This document shows, in pieces, positions 1 to 14,000 of a DNA stretch of 64,000 nucleotides. Source of the DNA: Methanotrichaceae archaeon (lineage in GTDB: Archaea > Halobacteriota > Methanosarcinia > Methanotrichales > Methanotrichaceae); contig CAVWIG010000007.1 of the NCBI GenBank assembly GCA_963754945.1, positions 32,001 to 96,000 on the forward strand. Direction: 5' to 3'. A model generated the notes under the pieces. That model searched no databases, had not been told where the DNA came from, and saw nothing but the letters and a program-made list of their open reading frames with translations. How positions within the stretch are numbered: position 1 is the first letter of the stretch; every line of letters starts with the position of its first letter. A program made the translations under genes and the position numbers.

Positions 1-2
1 TC

Positions 3-488
3 AAGAAGACAGGAGCTGGAAATCTGTTCATGGTCTTTGGCGAGCCGGATATTACCATCCATAGGATAAAGCCAGAGTCTCCAAAGGTCAAGCAGCCCAA
101 ATGGCCGCCGCAAGAGGCTAAAGAGCCAGGAGAGCAGATTGTTGTCGAGATCAATGGCCTAGATATCTACGATCCTACAACAGGCGAGATAAGGAGCAGT
201 TCGACAGATGACATAGCCTGCTGGTTCATTGATACCAACTACAATGAGGAGAGCTTCTTTGTGCGGCAGGCATATTTCACAGGAGCTGATGAGCCTTATG
301 AGAAGCTTAAGAGAGCCTTGAGGGCCGAAATTGACGAGGAAGCTTGGTCAGCTCTTTATTCCACGAAAAGCATGCTGTTCGATATTCCCGAGACTGGGAA
401 GATCGCGGTGAAGGTCATAAACCACTATGGCGATGAAGTGTTGAAGGTGTTTGAGGTCGGAAATCTTGACATAGGAGATCGGGGATGA
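3..488 (+). CDS. C-terminal part of a site-specific adenine DNA methyltransferase (type III RM Mod-like), 5' end outside window
   Basis: The frame is open from the window edge (KKTGAGNLFMVFGEPDI...). The C-terminus has IACWFIDTNYNEESFFVR and GKIAVKVINHYGDEVLKV, typical of Mod-type methylases. Confidence 0.8.
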   Translation, partial: KKTGAGNLFMVFGEPDITIHRIKPESPKVKQPKWPPQEAKEPGEQIVVEINGLDIYDPTTGEIRSSSTDDIACWFIDTNYNEESFFVRQAYFTGADEPYEKLKRALRAEIDEEAWSALYSTKSMLFDIPETGKIAVKVINHYGDEVLKVFEVGNLDIGDRG

Positions 489-866
489 GGCCGTATGGTA
501 GAAAAATCGGAAATCATGAAAGAGATCCTCTGGTTACATAATCAGATCTCAGGCTATAAGACTTTTTGAAGCGCTTTACTCTTTCATAAGCCGAGGAAAA
601 TATTAGAGGAAGATTGCTGAGTCATTTCCGATGAGTCGCCCCTGGATAAACAAGGTATGTTAGAGCAAGCTGATGTATGTATCTCAAACGCTGAAACGGG
701 CGCGAATCGAGGACTTTTCGCTTATCTGAGTCCATCCGGATGAAAATATGCAGTGGATCTCTGTTCCCGTTACAGAAATACCAATCATATAATCACATTC
801 CCTCATTCGAAGCAGGATGTCTTCGAGTCCACTTGGTGAAGCTAGAGGGGTGTTGAGGAGCTGCAA

Positions 867-1193
867 TTGATGGAGCCCAAAGCTCGGGAGGGAGGTAGTC
901 AAGAGGTACATGACGAGCTGGGCGGTGCAGATGTTAAGGAGCTGGCAATCCATCGCAGGGTTAGCAGGCTGAACTACTCCCGTAGATGTGCCGAGGCTTC
1001 GGCAGTGCAGGCACATATGAAGCAAGGTATCCCACTGGCTCCAGGGATGGAGATAGGCTACGTGATTAGAGATGCCCGGAAGTGGGAAGTTGATCCAGAG
1101 AGAACAGCATCAAAGTTCGATGCAGTGTACTATCGAGGGCTGCTGGAGAAGGCTTGGACGGAGGCGGCGTTTGTTTTTGGGCCTCGACTTTAA
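867..1193 (+). pseudogene. C-terminal remnant of a family B DNA polymerase (PolB2-like)
   Basis: ELAIHRRVSRLNYS...PGMEIGYVIRDA...FDAVYYRGLLEKAW resembles a PolB thumb/C-terminus. No upstream palm domain is present. Confidence 0.65.
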
Positions 1194-1207
1194 AACAGTA
1201 ACTATGT

Positions 1208-2242
1208 TCACAGTGAACTAGTTCCAAAGCATTTTCCCTTTGAGGCGAATTCGGCTATGCCTGTGAAATTCGATTCGGTCTCCATCCAGGTCTCTTTCTT
1301 ATGAATTCCCGCACTGCTGCTCAAATCAAGAGCTTTCGCGTGCAGATATTTCTCTCTAAGCGTTGCTTTTGTGATGTGATTCTCGCAAACACGGTTTGCA
1401 TACCAACTGCTATTGTAATTCAAAGGATGGCTGGATATGTTGACCAAAGCAACGATGCCCTTTGCCCGCAGGTTCTGTTCAGCGGACAACCTCGAAGGAG
1501 AGAGGCTGAGTTTTTCATTCGAACTGTATTCCCCGGAGCCGTGTTCGCTGAAGTCGATATTGGCACCGTCCACTGGTTTGATTGTCGTGGTTATCAATAA
1601 TGTCTTTTTGATGGCTTCGTACGACAGAGTGACCTTATTGGTTATCTTGTAGCTGGGGCGATTCGTTGACAGCGTCCCGTGTACGGATGAGTAACCAATC
1701 CCAGAAACGCTCCCTTCGATATCTGCTTCGCATGTCGATTTAGGGACCTTTACAGTGATCTTTATCTTTATCCACGTACTGGAAGGATGTAACCCTTTAA
1801 TGGTCCACGTGTTGTCTGTTCCGCTATCCGGCTCTGGATCAGCCTTCATGAAAACTGTTCCCGGACCGTAATCCTCGGTTATTACCAAGTCTACGTCCCT
1901 TTTCAGGTTGTTTTTGTACTTTATAGTGTAAGTTATTTGGCTCCCCGGACTAACTGCTTTTGAACCAGTCAATGAGAAATCTAGGGATGGAGGCTTCTTC
2001 TTGGATGCCTTTGCTGGTTTGGCATCCATGAGCGAAGAATTAATTGAATGCGATTCATCGAGGACGCTATTGGAATTGTTTTCCTCTGATACAATAGCGT
2101 TATTGTCCGAGATCGATCCTTCGGCTGTAATGCTGCTATCGAGATCGTCAAGAGAGTTGCTCGACAAAACCAAGGTCGCAAGAATGGACCATATCATAAA
2201 TACGGCGAGGTTATTCATCAATATAGGTCTAATGCGCTGCAC
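1208..2242 (-). CDS. Secreted DUF11-like (conserved repeat/Ig-like) domain protein, possibly C-terminally truncated
   Basis: Hydrophobic signal peptide, then VSPGSQITYTIKYKN...VITEDYGPGTVFMKADPEPD...WTI, a DUF11-type pattern. Confidence 0.6.
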   Translation of the reverse strand: MQRIRPILMNNLAVFMIWSILATLVLSSNSLDDLDSSITAEGSISDNNAIVSEENNSNSVLDESHSINSSLMDAKPAKASKKKPPSLDFSLTGSKAVSPGSQITYTIKYKNNLKRDVDLVITEDYGPGTVFMKADPEPDSGTDNTWTIKGLHPSSTWIKIKITVKVPKSTCEADIEGSVSGIGYSSVHGTLSTNRPSYKITNKVTLSYEAIKKTLLITTTIKPVDGANIDFSEHGSGEYSSNEKLSLSPSRLSAEQNLRAKGIVALVNISSHPLNYNSSWYANRVCENHITKATLREKYLHAKALDLSSSAGIHKKETWMETESNFTGIAEFASKGKCFGTSSL

Positions 2243-2498
2243 AAAAACCTTTCTGACACAGAAAATTAATTAATAATGTAGCATTGAAACGATGCTATAC
2301 AGCAAAATGTATCAAACTATCCCATTTGATATGCCATATCGCTGCTGTACGAAAAGTTGAAATCCAAGGCTTTGGCCAAACAGTAATGTTGTCGCGAGGG
2401 GAATACGATCGCACAGTGAACTCAAAATAAAGAAACAGTGAGAAAAATCCCTTCTTTCAAGCTTTTCTAACTCTGGAGCTTGTCACTCAAAAGCTCTG

Positions 2499-3602
2499 TT
2501 ATCTCCTCCTGGTTATGATAGACAGCACGTCGCCGTCGACTAGAGTGTGGTTGAGTCCTACTGATTGACCGGGGAACTTGGCGCTCTTCCCCCACACGAG
2601 AGAGTACCTGAATAGATCCACAAAATCCCTGTGAAGATGCTCGCAGACCGTTCTGACGGTCGAGCCATCAAGAATCACAAGGGGTTCGTCAAGATCTGCC
2701 TTTTCTCCCTTGGGTTTTAGGTAGACCCTTATGAAGCCAAGAGTGTCGTATATTGTCTCCTTCAGCTCTTCTATACCTTCTAAAGTTACTGCCGATACCC
2801 GGAGATAATCTCTGCCGATGGTTTCTTTGATCTTCTCTTCCACTCCGGTGTACCTCAGGTCGAACTTGTTTATGGCCACAACGCTTGGAATATAGACCCT
2901 GTTTCCTGCCAGGAAGTCGACTAGGCTGTCAGTGTCGATGTCCTCCCGAACGGTAACGTTGGCATTGACTATCCCGTATACGCGGATGATCTCTGCGATC
3001 TCATTCACCGTCATTTTTGTGAGCTGAACTGTGCTTCTGATGATTATGCCGCCCTTGGTCGCCTGGGTGATTGAGATGTCCGGAGGCTGCTTGTCCAGCC
3101 TGATGCCGGCGTCATAGAGTTCCCGCATTAGAATATCGAGTCGGTAGTTGAAGACGTCTCCCAGAAGAAGGATTATATCGGCAGCTCGAGCAGCGGTTAT
3201 GACTTCTCTCCCTCGGCCCTTCCCTCTGGCTGCTCCCTTGATCAACCCTGGCATGTCCAGGATCTGGATCTCGGCGCTCTTGTACTCCATGATTCCGGGT
3301 ATGACCTCTAGAGTAGTGAAATGGTACTCAGCCACCGCAGAATTCGCGCCTGTGAGGAGGTTGAGGAGGCTCGATTTTCCCGTGGAGGGGAAGCCTACCA
3401 GGGCTACGGTGGCATCACCTGACTTTTTGATGTAGAACCTTCTGCCCGTCCCGCCGCCTTTTACCTTCTGGAGCTCCTGCTGTGCCTTCAGTTTTGCGAT
3501 CTTGGCCTTCAGCTTTCCTATGTGGTGCTCAGTGGCCTTGTTCTTCTGAGTTTTGAGGATCTCCTCTTCTATCTCCTTGATCTGTTCCTCGATGGTTGCC
3601 AT
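2499..3602 (-). CDS. drg: DRG (OBG family) GTP-binding protein with TGS domain
   Basis: N-terminal KNKATEHHIGKLKAK, G1 GFPSTGKS, YHFTTL, DMPG, NKFD and a C-terminal TGS domain. Confidence 0.95.
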   Translation of the reverse strand: MATIEEQIKEIEEEILKTQKNKATEHHIGKLKAKIAKLKAQQELQKVKGGGTGRRFYIKKSGDATVALVGFPSTGKSSLLNLLTGANSAVAEYHFTTLEVIPGIMEYKSAEIQILDMPGLIKGAARGKGRGREVITAARAADIILLLGDVFNYRLDILMRELYDAGIRLDKQPPDISITQATKGGIIIRSTVQLTKMTVNEIAEIIRVYGIVNANVTVREDIDTDSLVDFLAGNRVYIPSVVAINKFDLRYTGVEEKIKETIGRDYLRVSAVTLEGIEELKETIYDTLGFIRVYLKPKGEKADLDEPLVILDGSTVRTVCEHLHRDFVDLFRYSLVWGKSAKFPGQSVGLNHTLVDGDVLSIITRRR

Positions 3603-3789
3603 TTATCATCCTGCTCTATCCTGGAGCCGTTTTATTGGATTGGCTTGCGATCCAGGTATCAGAAGCTCTAATTGGGGGAGGATCTTTTGAGTTTTCACCT
3701 TTATAAGGTGATGCTTTTCCGGATGCCTTTCGGATTTAGGATTACGTTTCCAGAGCGGGTGCAAGACATAGATAGGGCCGATATTAGCT

Positions 3790-3964
3790 CTACATGAAAA
3801 AAACAGCTTTATTCTAGGGTAGATTAGCGGAATGTGGCGGTATGAGAGTCGGTTTATCGCCCGTACCGGGCAGGTTTGGGGGACTTATCCCTCCTTCCTC
3901 CTCACCTGCCCTGGGATCTGAAACAGAAAATCAACTGAACGGTGAACTTAGTGGAGAGTGAAAG
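3790..3964 (+). promoter_or_regulatory. Putative BRE/TATA promoter and structured 5' leader of the curli-like gene
   Basis: GAAAAAAACAGCTTTATT (purine-rich BRE plus TATA-like) near 3796-3813. Hairpin GGGCAGGT(3868-3875)/ACCTGCCC(3904-3911). Confidence 0.35.
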
Positions 3965-4687
3965 ATGAGAATTACAGCAATTACAATAATGGTGATGCTC
4001 TTACTGGCATCCTCAGCATCAGCAGGAAACGTTGTAAAGCAGAGCATCGATATGTCAGCCCGCGGCGGCCAGATCAGCCAGAGCGCGGCCAACGCTGCGG
4101 TAGTTTCCGGCAACAATAATTACGTGAGCCAGGGTGTCTCCCAGGCCGCCAGGGGAAGCCAGATCACTCAGAGCGGAGCTAACGCTGTGGTTGTAGTAGG
4201 AAGCGGTAACACAATAATACAGGGAGTGGATCAGAAGGCCAGAGGCAACAACATCGCCCAGAGCGGAGCCAATGCCTTGGCTGTGCTTGGCAACGATAAC
4301 TACGCCAACCAGCAGGTCGCTCAGGGAGCCTACGGGAGCAACATCTTCCAGAACGGCTGGAACACGGGCTCGATTACCGGAGACGGGAACACTCTTGTCC
4401 AGGGATTGCTGTCCATTGCAAAGACCTACACCAACAATACCAGTCAGACCATGAGAAACACAGCATACATCACCGGCTCCTACAATCAGGTTAATCAGCA
4501 GGTCTCGGGCGTCGTGCTCACAGGCACTAGCAACGCGCCAGTAATTCAAACGGGCAGCAACTTCGGTCAGACCCTTGATCGTAACTCCAATCAATTCGAA
4601 CAAAACACGAAGCTGAAGGCCAAGGGCGGACACAAGGGAAATGTTTTGCAGCACGGCGCGAATGAGGTGAGAATTGGGCCAATATGA
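3965..4687 (+). CDS. Secreted Gln/Asn/Gly-rich 30-aa repeat protein, curlin-like beta-solenoid candidate
   Basis: Signal peptide ending ASSASA, then about 7 repeats of G-x-x-N-x-x-x-Q-x-V-x-Q-x-A-x-G-x-x-I-x-Q-x-G-x-N. Confidence 0.75.
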   Translation: MRITAITIMVMLLLASSASAGNVVKQSIDMSARGGQISQSAANAAVVSGNNNYVSQGVSQAARGSQITQSGANAVVVVGSGNTIIQGVDQKARGNNIAQSGANALAVLGNDNYANQQVAQGAYGSNIFQNGWNTGSITGDGNTLVQGLLSIAKTYTNNTSQTMRNTAYITGSYNQVNQQVSGVVLTGTSNAPVIQTGSNFGQTLDRNSNQFEQNTKLKAKGGHKGNVLQHGANEVRIGPI

Positions 4688-4698
4688 ATGTATTTAAT

Positions 4699-4728
4699 GG
4701 GCATCCACGACTTTTTTTAGGGTGCCCT
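4699..4728. terminator. Hairpin/oligo-T between convergent genes
   Basis: GGGCATCC...GGGTGCCC flanks a T7 run just after the 4687 stop. Confidence 0.4.
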
Positions 4729-4761
4729 ATCGCTGCTTGGTTATCAGCACCATTTTGGGTG

Positions 4762-6099
4762 TCAGCCTAATCTTCCCCATGTTTTTCCCGAAGAATCGAT
4801 TCCGTAATCGCCTTCATCGATGTCTCCTTGAACATCAGTGGCCACCCTGACGTGATACACCTTATCCCGAGCAGCTCCTGTGGTTGTTATTAGTATAACC
4901 TTACTTCCACCCGCCAGTACTTTACGATCCTGCTTCTCGAAATCATCTTTTGATTTCGGATCGACTATATCCGTTTTGTCGTCCTTTCCTTCTATGGAAA
5001 TCTTTTCAACTGTGACATTATATTTCTTGTTTGCATTTAATACGTTTATCTTCACCTCGGTATCGGTATTAAGCTTAGGAAAATCAACACCAAGTATTCT
5101 AATCCCGCCAGTTATTCCCATCATGTTGGTCATCATGCGCCTGTACTCTCTATCGCCTATATCTCCCAAGGCGTACCTTAAACTAACAATCTCTTCGGCT
5201 TTGAGCGGTGTGGGGGAGCCATCTTTGGTAGGATTCATCAGATTCTTCAAATAATCCTTCACTTTATCATCGGTCTTGTTATTCTCCCAGGCGCGGCTGC
5301 CAAAGTAGAAGAGGATAATGACGACGAAAACGTAGAGGAAGTTATTTGTGAAACTCGCCAGGGCACTCTCGGGAATAACATCAACATTGCCTGCCGTAGA
5401 ATTTCCGCCTAGGGAAATCTTACCTGAAGACCCATTAATAATCAGGGGTGTGAACTTGAAAGTGAATCCAGAGACGTTGGTCGCCTCAAATCCTCCATTT
5501 GTGCCCGTCAGGTTGAACGTGAATATATGTTCTCTTTCTACAGAATTCTTTTCTGTTAATTTCTCGTGAAGAGATACACTGCTAAATGCTGCGCTGGTCT
5601 TGTTATCCTTGGGTCCCAGGATGGAAGGACTGTTAAAGGAGACCACTAGGAGGATTATGTACACTATCGTCAGGGATATGACTATGGCTTTTCTGATCTC
5701 ACCGCTATCAAGCCTCGATCCAAGGTTGACTTTGGACGAAATAGCCAGGACCAATGGCACAGAGAGGCCTATGATGCCCGCCAGAGATACGATCAGGAAG
5801 TCGGCCTTTTGCCCATGAAAGGCAAGGGCGAATGCTATCGCGATCATCGCTATTAATACCATCAAAATATCGCTGTTGCTGAAATCGCTGTTGTCGTCGT
5901 CCGCCTTTTCCTTAATGGCTGCAAAAATTGAGATGATCATGCTCCCTAATATTATAAACCCGAAAGGAGTCCAATCCTTCCACTCCTCTACGTTAAGGAG
6001 GTGTCTATAGCTAATAGCAATAATTGCAGAACTAAGAACAAGCCATATCCAAAGAGACTTTGTTTTCAATAAGCTAAGATCTAGAGACATTTCGGCCAT
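4762..6099 (-). CDS. Multi-pass membrane protein with SHOCT-like motif and C-terminal beta domain
   Basis: About 6 hydrophobic segments. AEEIVSLRYALGDIGDREYRRM resembles the SHOCT consensus (LxxRYAxGEIxxEEY). Confidence 0.55.
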   Translation of the reverse strand: MAEMSLDLSLLKTKSLWIWLVLSSAIIAISYRHLLNVEEWKDWTPFGFIILGSMIISIFAAIKEKADDDNSDFSNSDILMVLIAMIAIAFALAFHGQKADFLIVSLAGIIGLSVPLVLAISSKVNLGSRLDSGEIRKAIVISLTIVYIILLVVSFNSPSILGPKDNKTSAAFSSVSLHEKLTEKNSVEREHIFTFNLTGTNGGFEATNVSGFTFKFTPLIINGSSGKISLGGNSTAGNVDVIPESALASFTNNFLYVFVVIILFYFGSRAWENNKTDDKVKDYLKNLMNPTKDGSPTPLKAEEIVSLRYALGDIGDREYRRMMTNMMGITGGIRILGVDFPKLNTDTEVKINVLNANKKYNVTVEKISIEGKDDKTDIVDPKSKDDFEKQDRKVLAGGSKVILITTTGAARDKVYHVRVATDVQGDIDEGDYGIDSSGKTWGRLG

Positions 6100-6630
6100 A
6101 CATCCTCAATTTATCCTAAGATCACCTGTGATATAAACTTAGTTATAGTCAATTGCTGATATATTACAGATAATTGATAGATAATACAATACCTAATTGA
6201 ATATGCTAATGACACATAGAATAATTGCCAACAATATTGCCAGACGATCAACCATATCTCCGATAATATTTGCAATTCCAGTTCGAGGACTCCTAAAAAT
6301 CCGCTAAATAACGCTTTGATTTATATACTGCTTATAAAGCCGTGCCAAAAATCAGAGGTTATTAGGAATCCTCAGTTCTCTTGATTACATATTAATTTTT
6401 AAATAAAAATTAACGGCTGTGCTTAAAAATCCTGGAAATCTATGATCTTTAGCTTCATTCATTTTCTAATTGCATCAACGATTGTCTTACTGAGACTGAT
6501 CCTATTTTGGAGGCAAGCACAGGCTTAAACTATCTTTTGCATACAACTTAGCCGTGCTTAGATTTCAGTAGCATTTAAAATAGGTGGACCGAGCTACGAC
6601 GTCTATTATCTTAAAATTCGTTCTTGAGGG

Positions 6631-7215
6631 CTAATCTCCTTCCCAGCAGCTGCTTTTCTTGATCCTCTCCAGAAGGTCGCACAGCTTGTTGGCGCTGGCT
6701 ATGACCGTCGTCCTTCCTATTCTGTCCTCGGCGGCGGGTCTAACGGCAATGCCACCAAAATGTTTGTCGTCTCCAACGACTATCATCCCTTGGATGTGCA
6801 TCCAGGCATGGATGGCTTCAATGGCCTTCTCCTGGCCGCCATTTCTTGATCCCCCAACAGTTAGTGCGCACCCAACCTTGTCTTTCAGCTTGAATCCCTG
6901 CCTTCTCAACAGGATGGTTCGGTCGAACACGGCTTTAATCTGAGCAGTGACTGTGCCGAAGTAAACAGGGGATGAGATGATCATTCCATCTGCCACCTCC
7001 ATAAGCTCGTAAAACTCGTCCATATCATCCTTTATCGGACATGGCTTGCCTCGCGCGCAATCACCACAATCGTCGCAGTACCTCACCTCATGGGATGAAC
7101 ACAGAAGCTGTTGTGTTTTAAACCCTCTCTCCGATGCAACTTTCAAGGCTTCATCTAGTATGTACTCTGTGTTTCCCCCCTTCTTTGGGCTGCCCGAGAC
7201 GCCAAGGATCAACAT
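6631..7215 (-). CDS. Iron-sulfur flavoprotein (flavodoxin/NADPH-dependent FMN reductase family)
   Basis: GSPKKGGNT, CxxCxxCx5C, SPVYFG, GGSRNGGQE. Confidence 0.92.
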   Translation of the reverse strand: MLILGVSGSPKKGGNTEYILDEALKVASERGFKTQQLLCSSHEVRYCDDCGDCARGKPCPIKDDMDEFYELMEVADGMIISSPVYFGTVTAQIKAVFDRTILLRRQGFKLKDKVGCALTVGGSRNGGQEKAIEAIHAWMHIQGMIVVGDDKHFGGIAVRPAAEDRIGRTTVIASANKLCDLLERIKKSSCWEGD

Positions 7216-7344
7216 AACTCGCTACCTCAAATGTTCCTCTGTCCTTGAAGTGTACAGGAATGTATATGACACAGGAAGAGATATAACGCTTTTCGGGATC
7301 ACAAACTTAATATCTTAAAACATAATTTATATTGAGGACTTGAT

Positions 7345-7590
7345 ATGCACGCAGAGATCACATCGCTCCTGGGGCTGGAGGTCTACACTCAGAAAGGTGT
7401 CTACGTGGGCAAGGTGGATGACGCGGTTTTGGACACAGATCAGAGGATGGTCAGTGGTCTTGCCCTAGGGAGTGTGAACAAGAACCTCTTCGACCAGAAA
7501 GGAAAAGGGGTTGTAGTACCCTACCGCTGGGTTACAGTCGTTGGCGATATAATCCTCATGAAGCATCTGACCATAAATGCAAAGGAATAG
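7345..7590 (+). CDS. PRC-barrel domain protein (CdpB-like)
   Basis: LLGLEVYTQKGVYVGKVDD...VVVPYRWVTVVGDIIL. Confidence 0.9.
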   Translation: MHAEITSLLGLEVYTQKGVYVGKVDDAVLDTDQRMVSGLALGSVNKNLFDQKGKGVVVPYRWVTVVGDIILMKHLTINAKE

Positions 7591-8263
7591 CGCAAAGACG
7601 GCTAGCTGGGAGATCTATTCGAACCTGAAGGCTCGATCTCCCATAGTAGCACGGGCGGACGGCCGTGGCTTCAAGAAAATCCTGGAGAGCTGCGAAAAAC
7701 CGTACGATATGGATTTTGCCCGTTCGATGGTAGATGCGACAGTCAAGCTCTTCGAAGATTCTGGATTGGCGCCATCCTTTGCCTTCACGTTCTCAGATGA
7801 GATCAGCCTGATCTTTCTAGAGGCGCCCTTTGCTGGGAGGGTGGAAAAGATAGACTCCGTCATAGCGGGTCTCCTCTCAGGCGCGCTCTCGATGGCATTG
7901 GGGCGCGTGGTCTCCTTGGACTGCAGGGTTGTATCAGTTTGTGGGGCTGAGATCGTCGAGTACCTCACAGACCGACAAGATGAGACGTGGAGGAATCACG
8001 TCTTTTCCTACGGGTTCTACACGCTATTGAAGGATGGGTTGACCAACACACAGGCCATGGAGCAACTCAGGAATATGCGGGAGTTCGAGATCCACGAGCT
8101 TGTTTTCAAAAAAGGAGTCAACTTGGCCAAGACTCCTGCCTGGGAGCGTCGAGGAGTGCTGGTTTATAGAATGAGCGATGAGCTTGTCCAGAACTGGGAC
8201 CTGCCGCTTTTCAAGTCGGAGGAAGGCCGTATATTAATCGATCGATTAATCATAGGCAACTAG
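7577..8263 (+). CDS. thg1: tRNA(His) guanylyltransferase Thg1-like protein
   Basis: RADGRGFK, FSDEISL, LDCRV, RQDETWRN and PAWERRG motifs. Confidence 0.92.
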   Translation: MQRNSAKTASWEIYSNLKARSPIVARADGRGFKKILESCEKPYDMDFARSMVDATVKLFEDSGLAPSFAFTFSDEISLIFLEAPFAGRVEKIDSVIAGLLSGALSMALGRVVSLDCRVVSVCGAEIVEYLTDRQDETWRNHVFSYGFYTLLKDGLTNTQAMEQLRNMREFEIHELVFKKGVNLAKTPAWERRGVLVYRMSDELVQNWDLPLFKSEEGRILIDRLIIGN

Positions 8264-8284
8264 ACTTCTTGTACTGCACGGCAG

Positions 8285-8926
8285 TTAACCTTTCAGTTCA
8301 TCCCGTGCAATGTGGTGCTCTCCCTCGCTGTCGTGGACAATGCAGGCTCCACTCTTCGTAGGACTGCCTCTCTCGAAATCCGTGTACCTTTCCAGAAGGG
8401 CAATGGCCTCCTGGATCTCAGTTATGCTTCTATTTATCACCTGGGCTGCAATCCTCTCCGCCTCGTCTGAGTCGATCTTCTTGCCCAAGCCTCTGCATTC
8501 CGAGCAGCGTAGTGTTCCTTCATCGAGATAAAAGGGATAAGTCTTGCATAGCATTGGCCGTGACTGATAGATTTTGCATCCCTTTATGGAGTGGAACTTG
8601 CATGATTCTCCATCCTTTTTTATTCGCCACTCCAGGGTATGGAAATTTCCCCGGCTATCCCATTCACCGATTTTGGGAGGCTCTACGGCATCCAGCCAAC
8701 CCATGACCGTTGCGGCTAGAATTTTCCTGATCTCAAAGGGGAAGAGGACCACACTGTTATCCGCTCCGGCACAGCAATCTCCACAGCGGAGACACTCAAA
8801 ACCGATGGCCCTGATCTGAGAGGCTACATGCTCGATCGAGACCCTTTTTGCTGCTTCTAGGCTTTTGCGTAGTTCTTCTTGCCGCTCATCCCTCAGCTTT
8901 TTTGAGTTCTGCTTTTCGCCGATCAT
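8285..8926 (-). CDS. YkgJ/UPF0153 cysteine-cluster (CxxCxxCC) protein
   Basis: FECLRCGDCC...CKF...CKIYQSRPMLCKTYPF. The start is placed at ATG 8926, which overlaps the guaAA stop (ATGA). Confidence 0.85.
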   Translation of the reverse strand: MIGEKQNSKKLRDERQEELRKSLEAAKRVSIEHVASQIRAIGFECLRCGDCCAGADNSVVLFPFEIRKILAATVMGWLDAVEPPKIGEWDSRGNFHTLEWRIKKDGESCKFHSIKGCKIYQSRPMLCKTYPFYLDEGTLRCSECRGLGKKIDSDEAERIAAQVINRSITEIQEAIALLERYTDFERGSPTKSGACIVHDSEGEHHIARDELKG

Positions 8927-9480
8927 TTTTTGCACAGCTCGATGAAATTGCCGAGAAGCTTCTGTCCGTGCTCGGTGTGGACGACCTCGGGATGCCACTG
9001 GACGCCGTACAAAGGTCTATTGACATGCTTCATGGCCTCAATCTTGCAGACATTGGACCTGGCTAGAACTTCGAAATCCAATGGCAACTCCACAACCTGA
9101 TCTGCGTGGGATGCCCAGGTCTTGAAGGTCTTGGGCAGGCCCTTGAGTATGTCATTCTCTTTGACAACCTCGACCTGAACCTCTGCGTATCCTCCTATGG
9201 CTCCGGGAGCGACCCGGCCTCCGAAGGTTGTTCCCATGAGCTGCAAGCCCAGACAGATGCCCATTACGGGAATGTCAAGCTCTTTAAGATAATCGGCACA
9301 CCTGCCTGCACGCTCTAGGGTTGGTCCGCCGCCGAGGATGAGGCCGTCTGCTTCGATATCCTCCGGCGGGGTCTGATTTGAGATCAGCTTGCTCTCCACA
9401 AAGTCCCTGATGCTCCTGACTATAAGATGGTTGAACTGCCCGTAGTTGTTGACCACAAGTATGCGCATTAGCACCTTCAT
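8923..9480 (-). CDS. guaAA: GMP synthase glutamine amidotransferase subunit A
   Basis: NNYGQFNHLI, GICLGLQ and QWHPEV class I GATase motifs. Confidence 0.95.
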   Translation of the reverse strand: MKVLMRILVVNNYGQFNHLIVRSIRDFVESKLISNQTPPEDIEADGLILGGGPTLERAGRCADYLKELDIPVMGICLGLQLMGTTFGGRVAPGAIGGYAEVQVEVVKENDILKGLPKTFKTWASHADQVVELPLDFEVLARSNVCKIEAMKHVNRPLYGVQWHPEVVHTEHGQKLLGNFIELCKK

Positions 9481-9857
9481 GCCCGTTATGAAGATATATT
9501 TTATGGCTCTGTGGCAGGTATCAGATTACTCCTCGGTCCGGAGACGTCAGTGTATATCGCTTCAAGATGTAGCAGTAAGTCTTCACAAGAAGGCTAAGTC
9601 CTACAAAGGGCAAAGTTTTATACGAAACAGAGTCTATTATTTAGTTATGAAATTAGTTATGATCTAAGCCAGACTAGTACTCAAGGTACGGCTATCGATG
9701 TCTTCCTAAATAGTCAATCTGTGATTGACAAAAATAATGCAGAGCTAAGTCAAGATCGTTTCCTATGAAGGAGTACTACGACCAGGTTCCACACAAGACC
9801 TAGAAAGAATTCACATGAACCACTTAGCTGAAAAAGCAGTTGATAAGGCTTCAACGT

Positions 9858-10946
9858 TAGGACTTACGCAGTTGAATCTTTCGACAATGAATAATAAGGA
9901 TATTTTATATATTCGCGAATTGACTCGCGAATAATTCTTCGCTTAGATTCGAACCAACTTATTCCTATTCTAAGCCTTTCTACTTCTAATCTGAGAAACG
10001 CTCTCAGGGAGAACATTATGTGTGCTCTCTGGGACTGACTTTTTCTTGCTTGACAGCTTTCGACTCCACAGAATTGCTTTATGCCTCTGTGATATTCCTC
10101 AATCTTCCAGGAATATCCACCAAATTTTTCGCGTTTAGCTTCGTCTATCTCCAGCACGTCAGTTGCCCAGTATCCTATGTCACCGTCATTAGAGACTATC
10201 CGGAATACTTTTATAAAACCATAAGCTTTTAAATGCACTTCCCTGCCTTGCAGCGGTATCTCTATCTCCTGAATTTGCATATTTTTGGTGTTATTCGGAT
10301 TCACTAGCCTATTTTTCTTCAATCGGGTCAGCCAGTGCCATCCAGACTTTCGTATGGTTTTGAGATTATCTACACTGGCATACCAGCTATCGAAGAGAAC
10401 AATACAGGGCTGAAAACGCCGTTCTTTTGCTTTGGCAAGCATATCTCGAAAATGATCATTTTTTGTCTTGCCGTCGACATCTATATCGTAGATTCGGAAA
10501 TCAACGGGAATTATAGCGTTTCCATCTGTCCACAGCAACGTACAAATATTGATTCCATTCACCAATCGATGCTGTTTTCCACTCCATTGATGATAGACTA
10601 GGCTCATATTTTTAGCATATGGCTTGTCCAACGTCGTATCGTCAATAACCAAGAAACCATTTTGAGGCTGAACAATATCCTTTACCTCATTCCACAACGT
10701 ATCCGTATCTGGAGGCTGTCTTTGTAGAAGACGGGTAAATGCATCATGCGATGGACTATTTTCTCCTACTGGCTGGCACCTTGCAGCCTCAGTACAGGTA
10801 AAAACATCTACTGATGCTATCAGAAAGTGAATATAATCAAGATCATCGCACTTGGAAGGATTCAAGTTCAGCCCTATCCCATTTATTTGTTGGTATTAAT
10901 ATAGCATATGCAATATAAGAAGATTCTGCCAAGTGCGTAAGTCCTA
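9858..10946 (-). mobile_element. IS701-family insertion sequence
   Basis: 13-bp terminal inverted repeats TAGGACTTACGCA/TGCGTAAGTCCTA. 5-bp direct repeat AACGT at 9853-9857 and 10947-10951. Confidence 0.9.
9864..10865 (-). CDS. IS701-family DDE transposase
   Basis: SHDAFTRLL, VIDDTTLDKPY, FDSWYAS, WKIEEYHRGIKQ. Confidence 0.92.
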   Translation of the reverse strand: MNPSKCDDLDYIHFLIASVDVFTCTEAARCQPVGENSPSHDAFTRLLQRQPPDTDTLWNEVKDIVQPQNGFLVIDDTTLDKPYAKNMSLVYHQWSGKQHRLVNGINICTLLWTDGNAIIPVDFRIYDIDVDGKTKNDHFRDMLAKAKERRFQPCIVLFDSWYASVDNLKTIRKSGWHWLTRLKKNRLVNPNNTKNMQIQEIEIPLQGREVHLKAYGFIKVFRIVSNDGDIGYWATDVLEIDEAKREKFGGYSWKIEEYHRGIKQFCGVESCQARKSQSQRAHIMFSLRAFLRLEVERLRIGISWFESKRRIIRESIREYIKYPYYSLSKDSTA

Positions 10947-11036
10947 AACGTGAAAAAAAGCTACTTAAATCCTGGTTGTTAAGTCAGTGGTATGGATCTG
11001 TTGAGTGTAACCGGAATAGTGAAAGGAGAGTGAGGT

Positions 11037-14000
11037 ATGTCAAATCCTAAAGAGAGGACTCTATTTAATAAAGACTATAAAAAATTAAATATGCATAGGT
11101 ATAACGATTTATTGCTTCTATCATCCGTGATAGCTATTTTTGGGATTCTGCTAGCCCTATCTGTCTCGGCTCAGCCGGCACTCGATAACTTATCATTGCC
11201 CGGTTCTGCCGCCTCTGTTGGGGGACCAACCAACTTGCCGCCGATAGCCGAGAGCTTGACGCCTGACAAGCCAAGCGGACAGGGTGTGGCCGGAGATGCG
11301 ATAACATGGACCGCTAAGGCAACCGATCCAGAACCGGAGGATCAGCTGCTGTACATGTTCAGACTCAATGGGCCATCGACGGATAATACTTGGAAGGATG
11401 TAACAAAATGGGGAGACAATAATAGCTGGGTATGGCAGACTTCCGATGTGGGCGCAGGCCAATACCAGATAGAGGTCTGGGTAAGGGATGGAAAGCACGC
11501 CGGAAGCGAAGGCTACGACGCCAAGATGTCCGCGAGCTACACGCTATCGGCTCCTGAAAAGAAAATCTCCCAGGCACCACAGCAGATTGCCCCTCCCGGA
11601 CAGGTTACGCAGCAACCCAGCACACCAACTCAACCAACAAATGCGCCGCAGGTAGAGAACAAGCCACCGAAATTGACTGATCTGCGACCCGACAAGGCCA
11701 GCGCACAGGCCGGTCAAGTAATAACCTGGACTGCCATGGCAACCGATCCGGAACCGGCAGACCAGTTGCTCTACAAGTTCTGGCTGACTGGGCCTTCGAC
11801 CAGCGGCCAGATTGTGGATAAAACCGGCTGGATACCTGACAATACCTGGACTTGGACTACAACATCAGACGACGTGGGAAACAACCAGGTCGAGGTCTGG
11901 GTGAGGGATGGAAATAATGCTGGCGAGAATAGCTTCGACGATAAATTATCTAGGACGTTTGTTGTAGAATCCGCTCCTTCAGAGATACCAGTTAAGGTTC
12001 CCCCTGGAATACCTGCACCCGGCCCGGTGGTCCCAGCACCAGCAACGCCGACACCCGGACCAATTGTCAACAACATGCCGCCTGTTTTGAGCGGCCTAGC
12101 TCCCGATAAATCCAGTGTGGAGGCTGGAGCCAATGTGATCTGGACGGCTACAGCCTCCGATCCGGAGAGCGACCCGTTGGTCTACAAGTTCTTCTTGAAG
12201 GGTCCAGCAACCGGCGGCCAACTGGCTGAAAAGACTGCCTGGGTATCAGACAACACCTGGACATGGACTACCACGCCAGCCGATGCCGGCCAAAACCAGG
12301 TTGAAGTCTGGGTGAGAGACAACAAGCACGCCGGACCAGATAGCAAGGACGACAGCGCGGACGCATCCGTCGCTGTGACCAAACCGAATCAAAAGCCCAC
12401 CATAACAGGGCTGTCTCCAGACAAAGCTAGCGCAGAGGCAGGCTCTACTGTGACCTGGACTGCAGTCGCAACAGATCCCGAGAACGACCCGTTGGTCTAC
12501 AAGTTCTTCTTGAAGGGACCAGCAACCGGCGGCCAACTTGCCGAAAAGACTGCCTGGATATCCGACAACACCTGGACATGGACTACCACGCCAGCCGATG
12601 CCGGCCAAAACCAGGTTGAAGTCTGGGTGAGAGACAACAAGCACGCCGGACCAGATAGCAAGGACGACAGCGCGGACGCATCCGTCGCTGTGACCAAACC
12701 GAATCAAAAGCCCACCATAACAGGGCTGTCTCCAGACAAAGCTAGTGCAGAGGCAGGCTCTACTGTGACCTGGACGGCTACAGCCTCCGATCCGGAGAAC
12801 GACCCGTTGGTCTACAAGTTCTTCTTGAAGGGTCCTGCAACCGGCGGCCAACTGGCTGAAAAGACTGCCTGGGTATCAGACAACACCTGGACCTGGACTA
12901 CCACACCAGCCGATGCCGGCCAAAACCAGGTCGAGGTCTGGGTAAGGGACGGCAATCATGCAGGGACAGAAGGGTTCGACGCCAACTTGGTCGTCAACTA
13001 TGAGTTAACTCAGCCAGCCCCCAAACCAACGACCCTCGTTTTGCCAGTCCAGGCACCAACTAATATCACTCCCGCTGGAAATGCGATTCCAACGCCGGCG
13101 GTCGTCAACAAGCCTCCAGTGGTGAACAGCCTAACACCAGACAAAACCAGTCCTCAGCTTGCCGGAACAGCAATAACCTGGACCGCAGTCGCAACCGATC
13201 CTGAAAAAGAAGACACAATCCTCTACAAGTTCTTCCTGAAGGGACCCAGCACCGGAGACCAGTGGTCTCAAGTAGCCGATTGGGGAACTGACAGCTTCTG
13301 GGCCTGGAACACTTCTGCAAAGGACATTGGCGATAACCAGGTACAGGTATGGGTAAGAGACGGAAAGAACGCTGGTCCCGATGGCGAGGACGCTAGTTTG
13401 GTCTCGAACGTCTTCGTCATAAATGCGCCGAAACCAAAGCCTCCAGTACAGCCTCTTGTGCCCGAGGTCCAACCTGTAACAATACACGCTAACATAACGC
13501 CTGCGGAGAACAAGCCGCCGGTGATCAACAGCCTGACGCCCGATCAACCCAGCCCGCAGTACGCAGGAGCGGTAGTAACCTGGACGGCTGCAGCAACGGA
13601 CCCTGAGAACGATCCGTTGCTCTACAAGTTCTTCTTAAACGGACCCGCGACAGGAAATCAGTGGAAGGAGCAGACCGGTTGGGTCTCTGAAAACATCTGG
13701 CGCTGGACAACATCTTCGAAGGATGTAGGTAGCAACCAGGTTATGGCGTCAGTCAGGGACAACAAACACGCCGGTCCAGAGGGTTCAGCCGGCAACGTCA
13801 CTGTGGATTACGTCATCAATGCTACAGCTCCGGCGCCATTGCCAAAGCCCATCGAGGTTGACAAGCCACCAGTTGTGAACAGCATAACGCCAGACAAAAC
13901 CAGCCCACAGTATGCAGGGACGGTAGTTACCTGGACTACTACAGCATTCGATCCGGAGAACGATCCTCTGGTTTACAAGTTCTTCCTAAAGGGGCCCAGC

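Follow-up and report, generated by a model that had tools for sequence, protein, structure and literature searches.

Curli are made of the secreted proteins CsgA and CsgB, in which the whole chain consists of imperfect repeats. According to the available text on curlins, strand-arc-strand beta-arches stack into an uncapped solenoid of two sheets, whose core is zipped by Asn/Gln ladders and whose arcs contain Gly (PMC10192328). In the same text, open-ended solenoids that lack caps polymerize by sheet augmentation, and CsgB is said to be capped by its last, imperfect repeat (PMC10192328). The subject of this analysis is REP240, the name given here to a 240-amino-acid (aa) repeat protein encoded at positions 3965-4687 (+) of a 64,000-nucleotide (nt) stretch of DNA, referred to as the window. 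The window comes from a Methanotrichaceae archaeon (GCA_963754945.1, contig CAVWIG010000007.1, positions 32,001-96,000 forward). REP240 is read as an independently evolved, curli-analogous, self-assembling extracellular solenoid with a structural or adhesive role, at a probability of roughly 40%.

The SH proteins of Methanothrix and Methanospirillum form the sheath of these archaea. As far as the available description goes, their core consists of two sheets of six antiparallel strands, and they possess cap domains, disulfide-linked hoops, and up to 40 gene copies per genome (PMC11576556). SH proteins share with REP240 their host organisms, an extracellular location, and a beta-rich structure, and they have been described as amyloid-like (PMC11576556, PMC10593813). 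MspA of M. thermophila was "discarded later" from the SH set in the same description (PMC11576556).

The beta-helix core of SufB, SufD, and SmsB gives the best superposition on REP240, over about 202 of its 219 mature residues. Like REP240, these proteins have a flattened two-sheet helix with coils of similar size. Suf proteins are cytoplasmic, carry N- and C-terminal helical domains flanking the beta-helix, and work with the SufC ATPase. FapC of Pseudomonas is another secreted protein with imperfect repeats, as is REP240, and is a functional amyloid.

REP240 is a genuine gene

The earlier note on this DNA, which was made from the sequence without database searches, placed an open reading frame (ORF) at this locus, and its coordinates, strand, ATG start, and length match exactly. 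Over 231 codon columns of 13 REP240 orthologues, the mean pairwise difference is 0.33 at the first codon position, 0.26 at the second, and 0.54 at the third. Because the third position varies most, the plus-strand frame is the coding frame. The signal peptide, 49 invariant columns, and the conserved length all fall within this frame as well. REP240 is therefore a genuine gene that is under selection.

An antisense ORF of 199 aa inside the REP240 gene is a shadow of the G/N/Q/A/V codon repeats, and annotation might mistake it for a gene. One could object that REP240 is a frame left open by chance in repetitive DNA, or that the antisense frame is the real gene, and point to the length of that antisense frame, which stays open in 11 of 20 loci. 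This objection is contradicted by the third-position excess, which sits in the plus frame together with the signal peptide, the invariant columns, and the conserved length. A conserved upstream box and a Shine-Dalgarno-like site also precede the plus-strand ATG. The probability left to this explanation is close to negligible.

Peat metatranscriptomes contain 11 contig pieces (4 runs from 4 studies) that lie on 3847-4167 and 4379-4681 with 88-100% likeness. These contigs record presence in RNA libraries; transcript ends, strand, and level are not readable from them, and the 5'-most contig, which starts at 3847, cannot reveal the transcript start. No RNA contig covers 4192-4355, 3700-3822, or 4684-4900, but such gaps are meaningless, as repeats break assemblies, and the last of them is no evidence of a transcript end.

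Signal peptide and repeats

The first 20 residues of REP240 are judged by inspection to be a Sec signal peptide, composed of MR, a hydrophobic stretch, and SSASA before the GN that opens the mature chain. Residues S16, A18, A20, and G21 around the cleavage site are at least 90% conserved. In 19-aa Kyte-Doolittle windows, hydropathy peaks at 1.89 at residue 3. The mature part peaks at only 1.01, and therefore has no membrane anchor. Residues 22-240 are made up largely of N (29), G (29), Q (24), A (22), V (21), and S (20), with no Cys, so that a chain free of both Cys and anchor, as the earlier note had it, is what was found.

The BLOSUM62 self-correlation of REP240 reaches 0.746 at a lag of 30 and 0.736 at a lag of 60. 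Among 300 shuffles, the best value at any lag was 0.057 (mean -0.21, standard deviation 0.075). The period of 30 is thus far beyond the shuffles, and the initial description of a signal peptide followed by about seven imperfect 30-aa repeats is borne out by the seven coils, R1 to R7. The coils were divided by anchoring on N-x3-Q and Q-x3-N. R1-R4 are in strict 30-aa register, with a mutual identity of 54-65% among R1-R3. The last strand of the chain, NEVRIG, is conserved. The number of coils varies within the family, since member P0020 has one extra 30-aa coil.

Each coil is composed of two strands, A and B. Strand A follows the pattern N1-x-h3-x-Q5-x-h7-x-Q9-x-A11-x-G13, in which odd positions are conserved and even positions are variable. 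This alternation is as expected if the odd side chains face the core. Strand B follows h16-x-Q18-x-G20-x-N22-x-h24-x-h26-x-G28. All seven coils have N1, Q5, Q18, and N22, and across 31 sequences these residues are either invariant or conserved to at least 90%. Their retention in every coil therefore implies four full-length Asn/Gln ladders, terminal coils included.

In R1-R4, strand B is conserved at odd and even positions alike, for example ITQSGANAVVVVG and IxQSGANALAVLG. Its outer stripe in these coils reads T/S, S, A, A, V, V. Such constraint on the outer face of sheet B would be a sign of a contact surface, where the side that faces out is assumed and not taken from coordinates.

Predicted fold and structural matches

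The AlphaFold2 (AF2) model of REP240, made with a 31-sequence alignment, has a mean predicted local distance difference test score (pLDDT) of 91.3 and a predicted template modeling score (pTM) of 0.83. It contains only strands over residues 23-237, and the sole helix is the signal peptide. Each 30-aa coil provides one long strand-arc-strand element (E23-48, E53-78, E83-108, and E113-138 in R1-R4), joined to the next by links of 4-6 residues. There is no helix or extra element at either end, and none follows residue 237. Mature REP240 is thus predicted, with high confidence, to be an uncapped, flattened two-sheet beta-solenoid of seven 30-residue coils. An uncapped solenoid of this kind was the expectation set down earlier for the monomer, and the predicted model agrees with it, its strands being longer than those of curli (coils of 30 aa against ~23).

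A Foldseek search with the model found no match in the PDB at an expectation value (E) of 0.001 or less. Structural Z scores and root-mean-square deviations (rmsd) were taken from an exhaustive VIA-align search with the same model. The beta-helices of SufB, SufD, and SmsB lead with Z 16.9-17.6 and an rmsd of 2.7-2.9 Å over 201-204 residues. CsgA of Pontibacter (P. korlensis, 8c50) follows with Z 14.3 (rmsd 8.2 Å, 155 residues), and the E. coli CsgA fibril (8enq) with Z 12.2 (rmsd 8.1 Å, 109 residues). Generic solenoids reach Z 10 or less. A three-copy complex prediction of residues 22-240, run without controls, returned an ipSAE of 0.00 in both runs, which counts neither for nor against self-association. 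In the ESM Atlas, the best scores are 0.87-0.89, under the 0.9 mark, and all of these belong to bacterial clusters that are unnamed or labeled "adhesin."

Comparison with curli and other functional amyloids

The resemblance of REP240 to curli, proposed in the earlier note, stands for architecture and fails for membership. The AF2 fold is a predicted two-sheet beta-arch solenoid with open ends, as in curli, whereas searches with hidden Markov models, the curlin kernel, and hhalign were all negative. Curlin_rpt (PF07012, cut-off 20.7 bits) gives no row for REP240 at E ≤10, and none of the 31 family members matches it at E ≤1. Among 19 distant relatives there is no match at E ≤0.1, and five of these that were rescanned at E ≤10 gave none. 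A PF07012 scan of the organism's own genome, for which the E. coli control passed, yielded only a 13.5-bit match on another contig. The source name of protein P0030 begins "Curlin associated repeat-c...", a label that a domain scan of P0030 did not reproduce.

The curlin kernel is given as [N/S]-x5-Q-x-G-x-x-[N/S]-x5-Q with a repeat of ~23 aa in the available text (PMC10192328). A search with this kernel found no site in REP240 and none in any of the 31 members, and the positive controls returned five sites in E. coli CsgA (5/5 repeats) and three in CsgB. With the 31-sequence profile, the hhalign probability is 0.8% for E. coli CsgA and 0.5% for CsgB, where single-sequence targets limit sensitivity. 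The profile comparison with curlins suggested at the outset thus came out below 1% for both proteins.

Pfam identifies no csgB, csgE, csgF, or csgG among 10 neighbors in the window and 28 neighbors in nine other loci. CsgG was not found in the organism's own genome, which is 87.7% complete. The neighbors are a DRG-type GTPase, FMN reductase, Thg1, and others, in agreement with the first observation that csgEFG-type genes are lacking nearby.

The two systems also differ in detail. The coil of REP240 is 30 aa long, and that of curli is 23 ± 5. The half-motifs are N-x-h-x-Q-x-h-x-Q-x-A-x-G plus h-x-Q-x-G-x-N-x-h-x-h-x-G in REP240, as opposed to N-$-h-$-h-$-Q-x-G-x-x in curli. Unlike the hosts of curli, the host of REP240 is an archaeon and has a single membrane. 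In REP240, one sheet has a conserved outer face, whereas the outward residues of curli vary in the available account (PMC10192328). Because every sequence membership test fails, the likeness is read as analogy, and the REP240 family as having arisen independently of curli. FapC gives only a chance-level Foldseek row (9u4u_A, E 0.19, TM 0.08-0.11) and no sequence match.

Comparison with the sheath

REP240 differs from the SH proteins in its predicted parallel solenoid, its lack of Cys, and its single copy in its own genome. The predicted parallel coils, whose closest structural matches are parallel beta-helices, would set it apart from the antiparallel SH core, as far as the model and the description of SH can be compared. 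The earlier note had listed a sheath subunit among the options. This is unlikely, because REP240 is a predicted parallel, Cys-free, single-copy protein that most genomes of the family lack, and the SH proteins are described as antiparallel and disulfide-linked (PMC11576556).

The REP240 family and its distribution

No Pfam, NCBIfam, or PHROGs model covers REP240. A word-indexed search found 33 homologues of 45-90% identity, which are 226-279 aa long when complete and are all unnamed or "hypothetical." Those with a label belong to Methanotrichaceae, Methanosarcinales, or Ca. Methanocrinis. An exhaustive phmmer search of 1.84 billion cluster representatives returned 24 proteins at E ≤0.001, four of them at E ≤1e-30. 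Genome contigs hold 19 related loci, of which 17 are labeled Methanothrix, Methanotrichaceae, or Methanocrinis, one "Methanosarcinales," and one "Methanobacteriota." The Methanocrinis strains among them (L018-L020) have one or two copies.

Among 105 genomes of the window's family, 35 match at E ≤1e-5, and 24 encode a near-full-length protein at E ≤4e-62. Two large genera mostly lack REP240, which is present in 5/16 and 6/59 of their genomes. A sample of 301 genomes of the phylum gave a match in 7 of 8 other genomes of the family and in 0 of 292 outside it. The REP240 family is confined to Methanotrichaceae, with looser relatives in other methanogens.

These distant relatives have no Pfam domain. 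A profile that takes in distant matches reached long relatives of 433-555 aa (P0053, P0056-P0060), which are acidic, rich in Tyr and Trp, and keep the Q-x3-N spacing. One of them is labeled Methanoregulaceae, and the wider repeat superfamily therefore reaches a second methanogen order. In P0037, P0040, P0041, and P0049, two arms of 30-aa repeats flank a central domain of ~100 aa that belongs to no family. At least one such frame, 449 aa long, occurs in a Methanotrichaceae genome (G047:C16:19910-21037). Another genome of the family (G008, contigs C10, C29, and C93) has 10 weaker matches, including three tandem frames of 287-310 aa on a single contig, and represents a local expansion of related repeat proteins. 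No longer or fused form of REP240 was found at E ≤0.001 among 8000 scored candidates, which is weak evidence. In the literature, subscription journals being outside coverage, there is no paper on the REP240 family or on a curli-like solenoid in Methanothrix or other archaea.

Proposed assembly and competing explanations

The predicted solenoid is open at both ends, and REP240 lacks a cap, any further domain, and an anchor; it therefore most likely serves outside the cell as a structural protein or an adhesive one. In the proposed mechanism, REP240 would be exported by Sec and would not be held by a membrane anchor. Its seven strand-arc-strand coils would form the predicted flat two-sheet beta-solenoid. 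Four Asn/Gln ladders, N1 and Q5 from strand A and Q18 and N22 from strand B, would zip the core, with small hydrophobic residues between them. Molecules would then self-associate end to end by beta-sheet augmentation and may also bind sideways, or to the cell envelope, via the conserved outer face of sheet B. The result would be fibers or a coat formed without dedicated secretion or nucleation machinery.

A bolder version makes REP240 the first curli-type functional amyloid of Archaea, a machinery-free 30-residue beta-arch fiber that bundles or coats cells by its conserved flat face. Head-to-tail cross-beta fibers would then contribute to the filaments, flocs, or granules that Methanothrix relatives form in peat and digesters. 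This version is rather doubtful.

Several points weigh against self-assembly. Polymerization of REP240 is deduced from the uncapped design of a predicted model. The model is a confident monomer that best fits the non-fibrous SufB/SufD helices, and its fit to CsgA has an rmsd of about 8 Å. For curlins, AF2 is described as giving twisted right-handed solenoids from thin alignments and untwisted left-handed ones from deep alignments, in the available text of Sleutel et al. (PMC10192328). The handedness predicted for such solenoids from a thin alignment is unreliable, and the REP240 model may err in its details. That the model fits Suf proteins better than CsgA may come partly from the predicted handedness and coil size, the REP240 alignment being thin. 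R5-R7 contain 2-5 additional loop residues, share 19-35% identity with other coils, and are Lys-rich in the window's copy. The head coil R1 and the tail coil R7 are only 27% identical. The degenerate, loop-rich, Lys-rich coils R5-R7 could form a natural cap, and they are the main argument for one. The distribution is patchy, with near-full-length copies in only 24 of 105 genomes, so REP240 is not a core part of the envelope. Finally, the RNA evidence consists of contigs only, for which DNA carry-over is possible.

The same fold could also serve without polymerizing. REP240 would then be a secreted monomeric or dimeric solenoid, an accessory coat protein or adhesin, that docks via the sheet B face onto the sheath, the S-layer, a partner protein (e.g., the DUF11-like neighbor), or a solid surface. 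In favor of this role, strand B of R1-R4 is conserved to the same degree on its outer face as in the core, and outward residues vary in curli as described in the available text (PMC10192328). The degenerate, charged C-terminal coils could block stacking, the top structural matches are non-fibrous helices, and the weak atlas leads, below the 0.9 mark, point to bacterial "adhesin" clusters. Close to the repeat gene, 9 of 19 loci, and the window as well, also encode a secreted DUF11-like protein. However, this neighbor is missing from the other 10 loci and its model is uninformative. The solenoid also lacks an anchor or binding domain, and neither end is capped in the model. A docking protein that does not polymerize is a credible alternative, though its chances are short of even. 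Another role for a flat, repetitive face would be to bind ice, minerals, or crystals by ordering water or a lattice, as does the grass antifreeze beta-roll. The outer stripe is flat and made up of T/S/A/V residues, and 8 of 31 members have sub-threshold matches to PF21300 (LbR_Ice_bind; best E 0.0053). REP240 itself scores 8.6 bits against this model, under the 30-bit cut-off. The antifreeze structure 3ult is the only PDB sequence match (E 4.4) and has Z 8.5 in the structure search. None of these scores reaches its threshold, and a common G/N/S/T composition accounts for them all. REP240 has 30-aa coils and superposes poorly on 3ult (rmsd 7.6 Å over 104 residues), and its gene context has no pointers to cold or mineral functions. 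Ice or mineral binding is thus improbable.

The remaining explanation would make REP240 a divergent homologue of the iron-sulfur scaffold SufB/SufD, recruited for use outside the cell. It has the top structural scores given above, and the first Foldseek row is a SufB (5awf_A, E 1.1e-3). In these structural alignments, however, sequence identity is only 7-10%. REP240 has no SUFBD match in Pfam at E ≤10, and the family profile has no match among all PDB sequences at the same threshold. Unlike SufB and SufD, REP240 has a signal peptide, no flanking helical domains, and no helix past residue 15. It also has internal sequence repeats, which suggest growth through coil duplication. Descent from a Suf scaffold is very improbable, and the self-assembling extracellular solenoid is retained as the preferred reading, by a small margin over the docking protein.

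Gene neighborhood and flanking signals

The features of the locus are collected in Table 1. The order in close relatives is a secreted DUF11-like protein, the DRG GTPase, REP240, FMN reductase, a PRC-barrel protein, and Thg1. The other neighbors, in the window and in nine further loci, are housekeeping genes of many kinds. REP240 is a solitary gene preceded by a conserved box of its own.

Table 1. Features in and around the REP240 gene, in window coordinates
Feature	Position	Strand	Basis or remark
Secreted 344-aa protein, sub-threshold DUF11	1208..2242	-	Recurrent neighbor; DUF11 19.2 bits against cut-off 24.6
G-TTTAT box, putative archaeal TATA element	3806..3812	+	Invariant in 5 aligned upstream regions (window and L002-L005)
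Leader, ~125 nt between TTTAT box and ATG	3836..3964	+	Conserved blocks in 5 relatives
GGAGAG, Shine-Dalgarno-like, 7 nt before ATG	3953..3958	+	Read from sequence
REP240 coding sequence, stop included	3965..4687	+	ATG-start ORF, 240 aa; third-position excess; 33 homologues; RNA contigs
Signal peptide, residues 1-20, probable cleavage between ASA and GN	3965..4024	+	Hydrophobic maximum at residue 3; helix 2-15, low pLDDT
Coils R1-R4, residues 22-141, regular 30-aa strand-arc-strand repeats	4028..4387	+	Register, identity matrix, model strands
Antisense ORF, 199 aa, shadow frame	4055..4654	-	
Coils R5-R7, residues 142-240, degenerate, longer loops, N-x3-Q/Q-x3-N kept	4388..4684	+	Alignment; model E143-154 through E227-237
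7-T run, 25 nt past stop codon, possible archaeal terminator	4712..4718	+	Sequence reading only
Multi-pass membrane protein, 445 aa	4762..6099	-	No Pfam family
DDE transposase (DDE_5 / DDE_Tnp_1)	9864..10865	-	

In 9 of the 19 related loci, a homologue of the DUF11-like protein is encoded within ~0.2-2 kb upstream of REP240, on the opposite strand. In four of these, the gene is directly upstream and divergent, without an intervening GTPase. A functional link between this neighbor and REP240 may exist. Its orthologues beside REP240 elsewhere are 487-503 aa long and contain an extra N-terminal domain of ~200 aa with a D-G-D-G-D motif, in place of which the window's copy has a Ser/Asn-rich stretch. 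The AF2 model of the neighbor (9 sequences) has a mean pLDDT of 42.7, and only residues ~85-170 fold, as a beta-sandwich.

In the window, the gene for the membrane protein lies between REP240 and the FMN reductase. A counterpart at that place is found in none of the 19 related loci, and the gene looks like a lineage-specific insertion. The DDE transposase marks an insertion sequence ~5 kb downstream of REP240.

Upstream of REP240, the G-TTTAT box is a putative promoter element. The leader between this box and the ATG contains the conserved blocks GAGAGTG and ATCCCTCC, and the GG at 3953-3954 is invariant in the five-sequence upstream alignment. Folding of the region 3836-3975 gives z = -0.36, a structure no better than shuffles. 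A scan for sigma-70 promoters and intrinsic terminators, a type unsuited to archaea, found matches at chance level only, and an Rfam scan of window positions 1-12000 found no match.

Significance

Methanothrix relatives are major methane producers whose filaments and aggregates shape both peat soils and anaerobic digesters. The architecture of REP240 is known; the family, the 30-aa geometry, the host domain, and the lack of machinery are new. For amyloid-based materials, the REP240 family offers a new repeat geometry of 30-aa coils with one conserved flat face. Should the protein not form fibers, it nevertheless represents a family-specific surface protein that lacks annotation and merits its own entry in Pfam. 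If it does form fibers, the curli solution of stacked beta-arches and Asn/Gln ladders would have arisen twice, in Bacteria and in Archaea, and such a fiber protein would work without a dedicated secretion or nucleation system. The surface assemblies described so far for Methanothrix relatives are those of SH proteins only, and REP240 fibers would add a second, structurally different self-assembling surface protein in these organisms.

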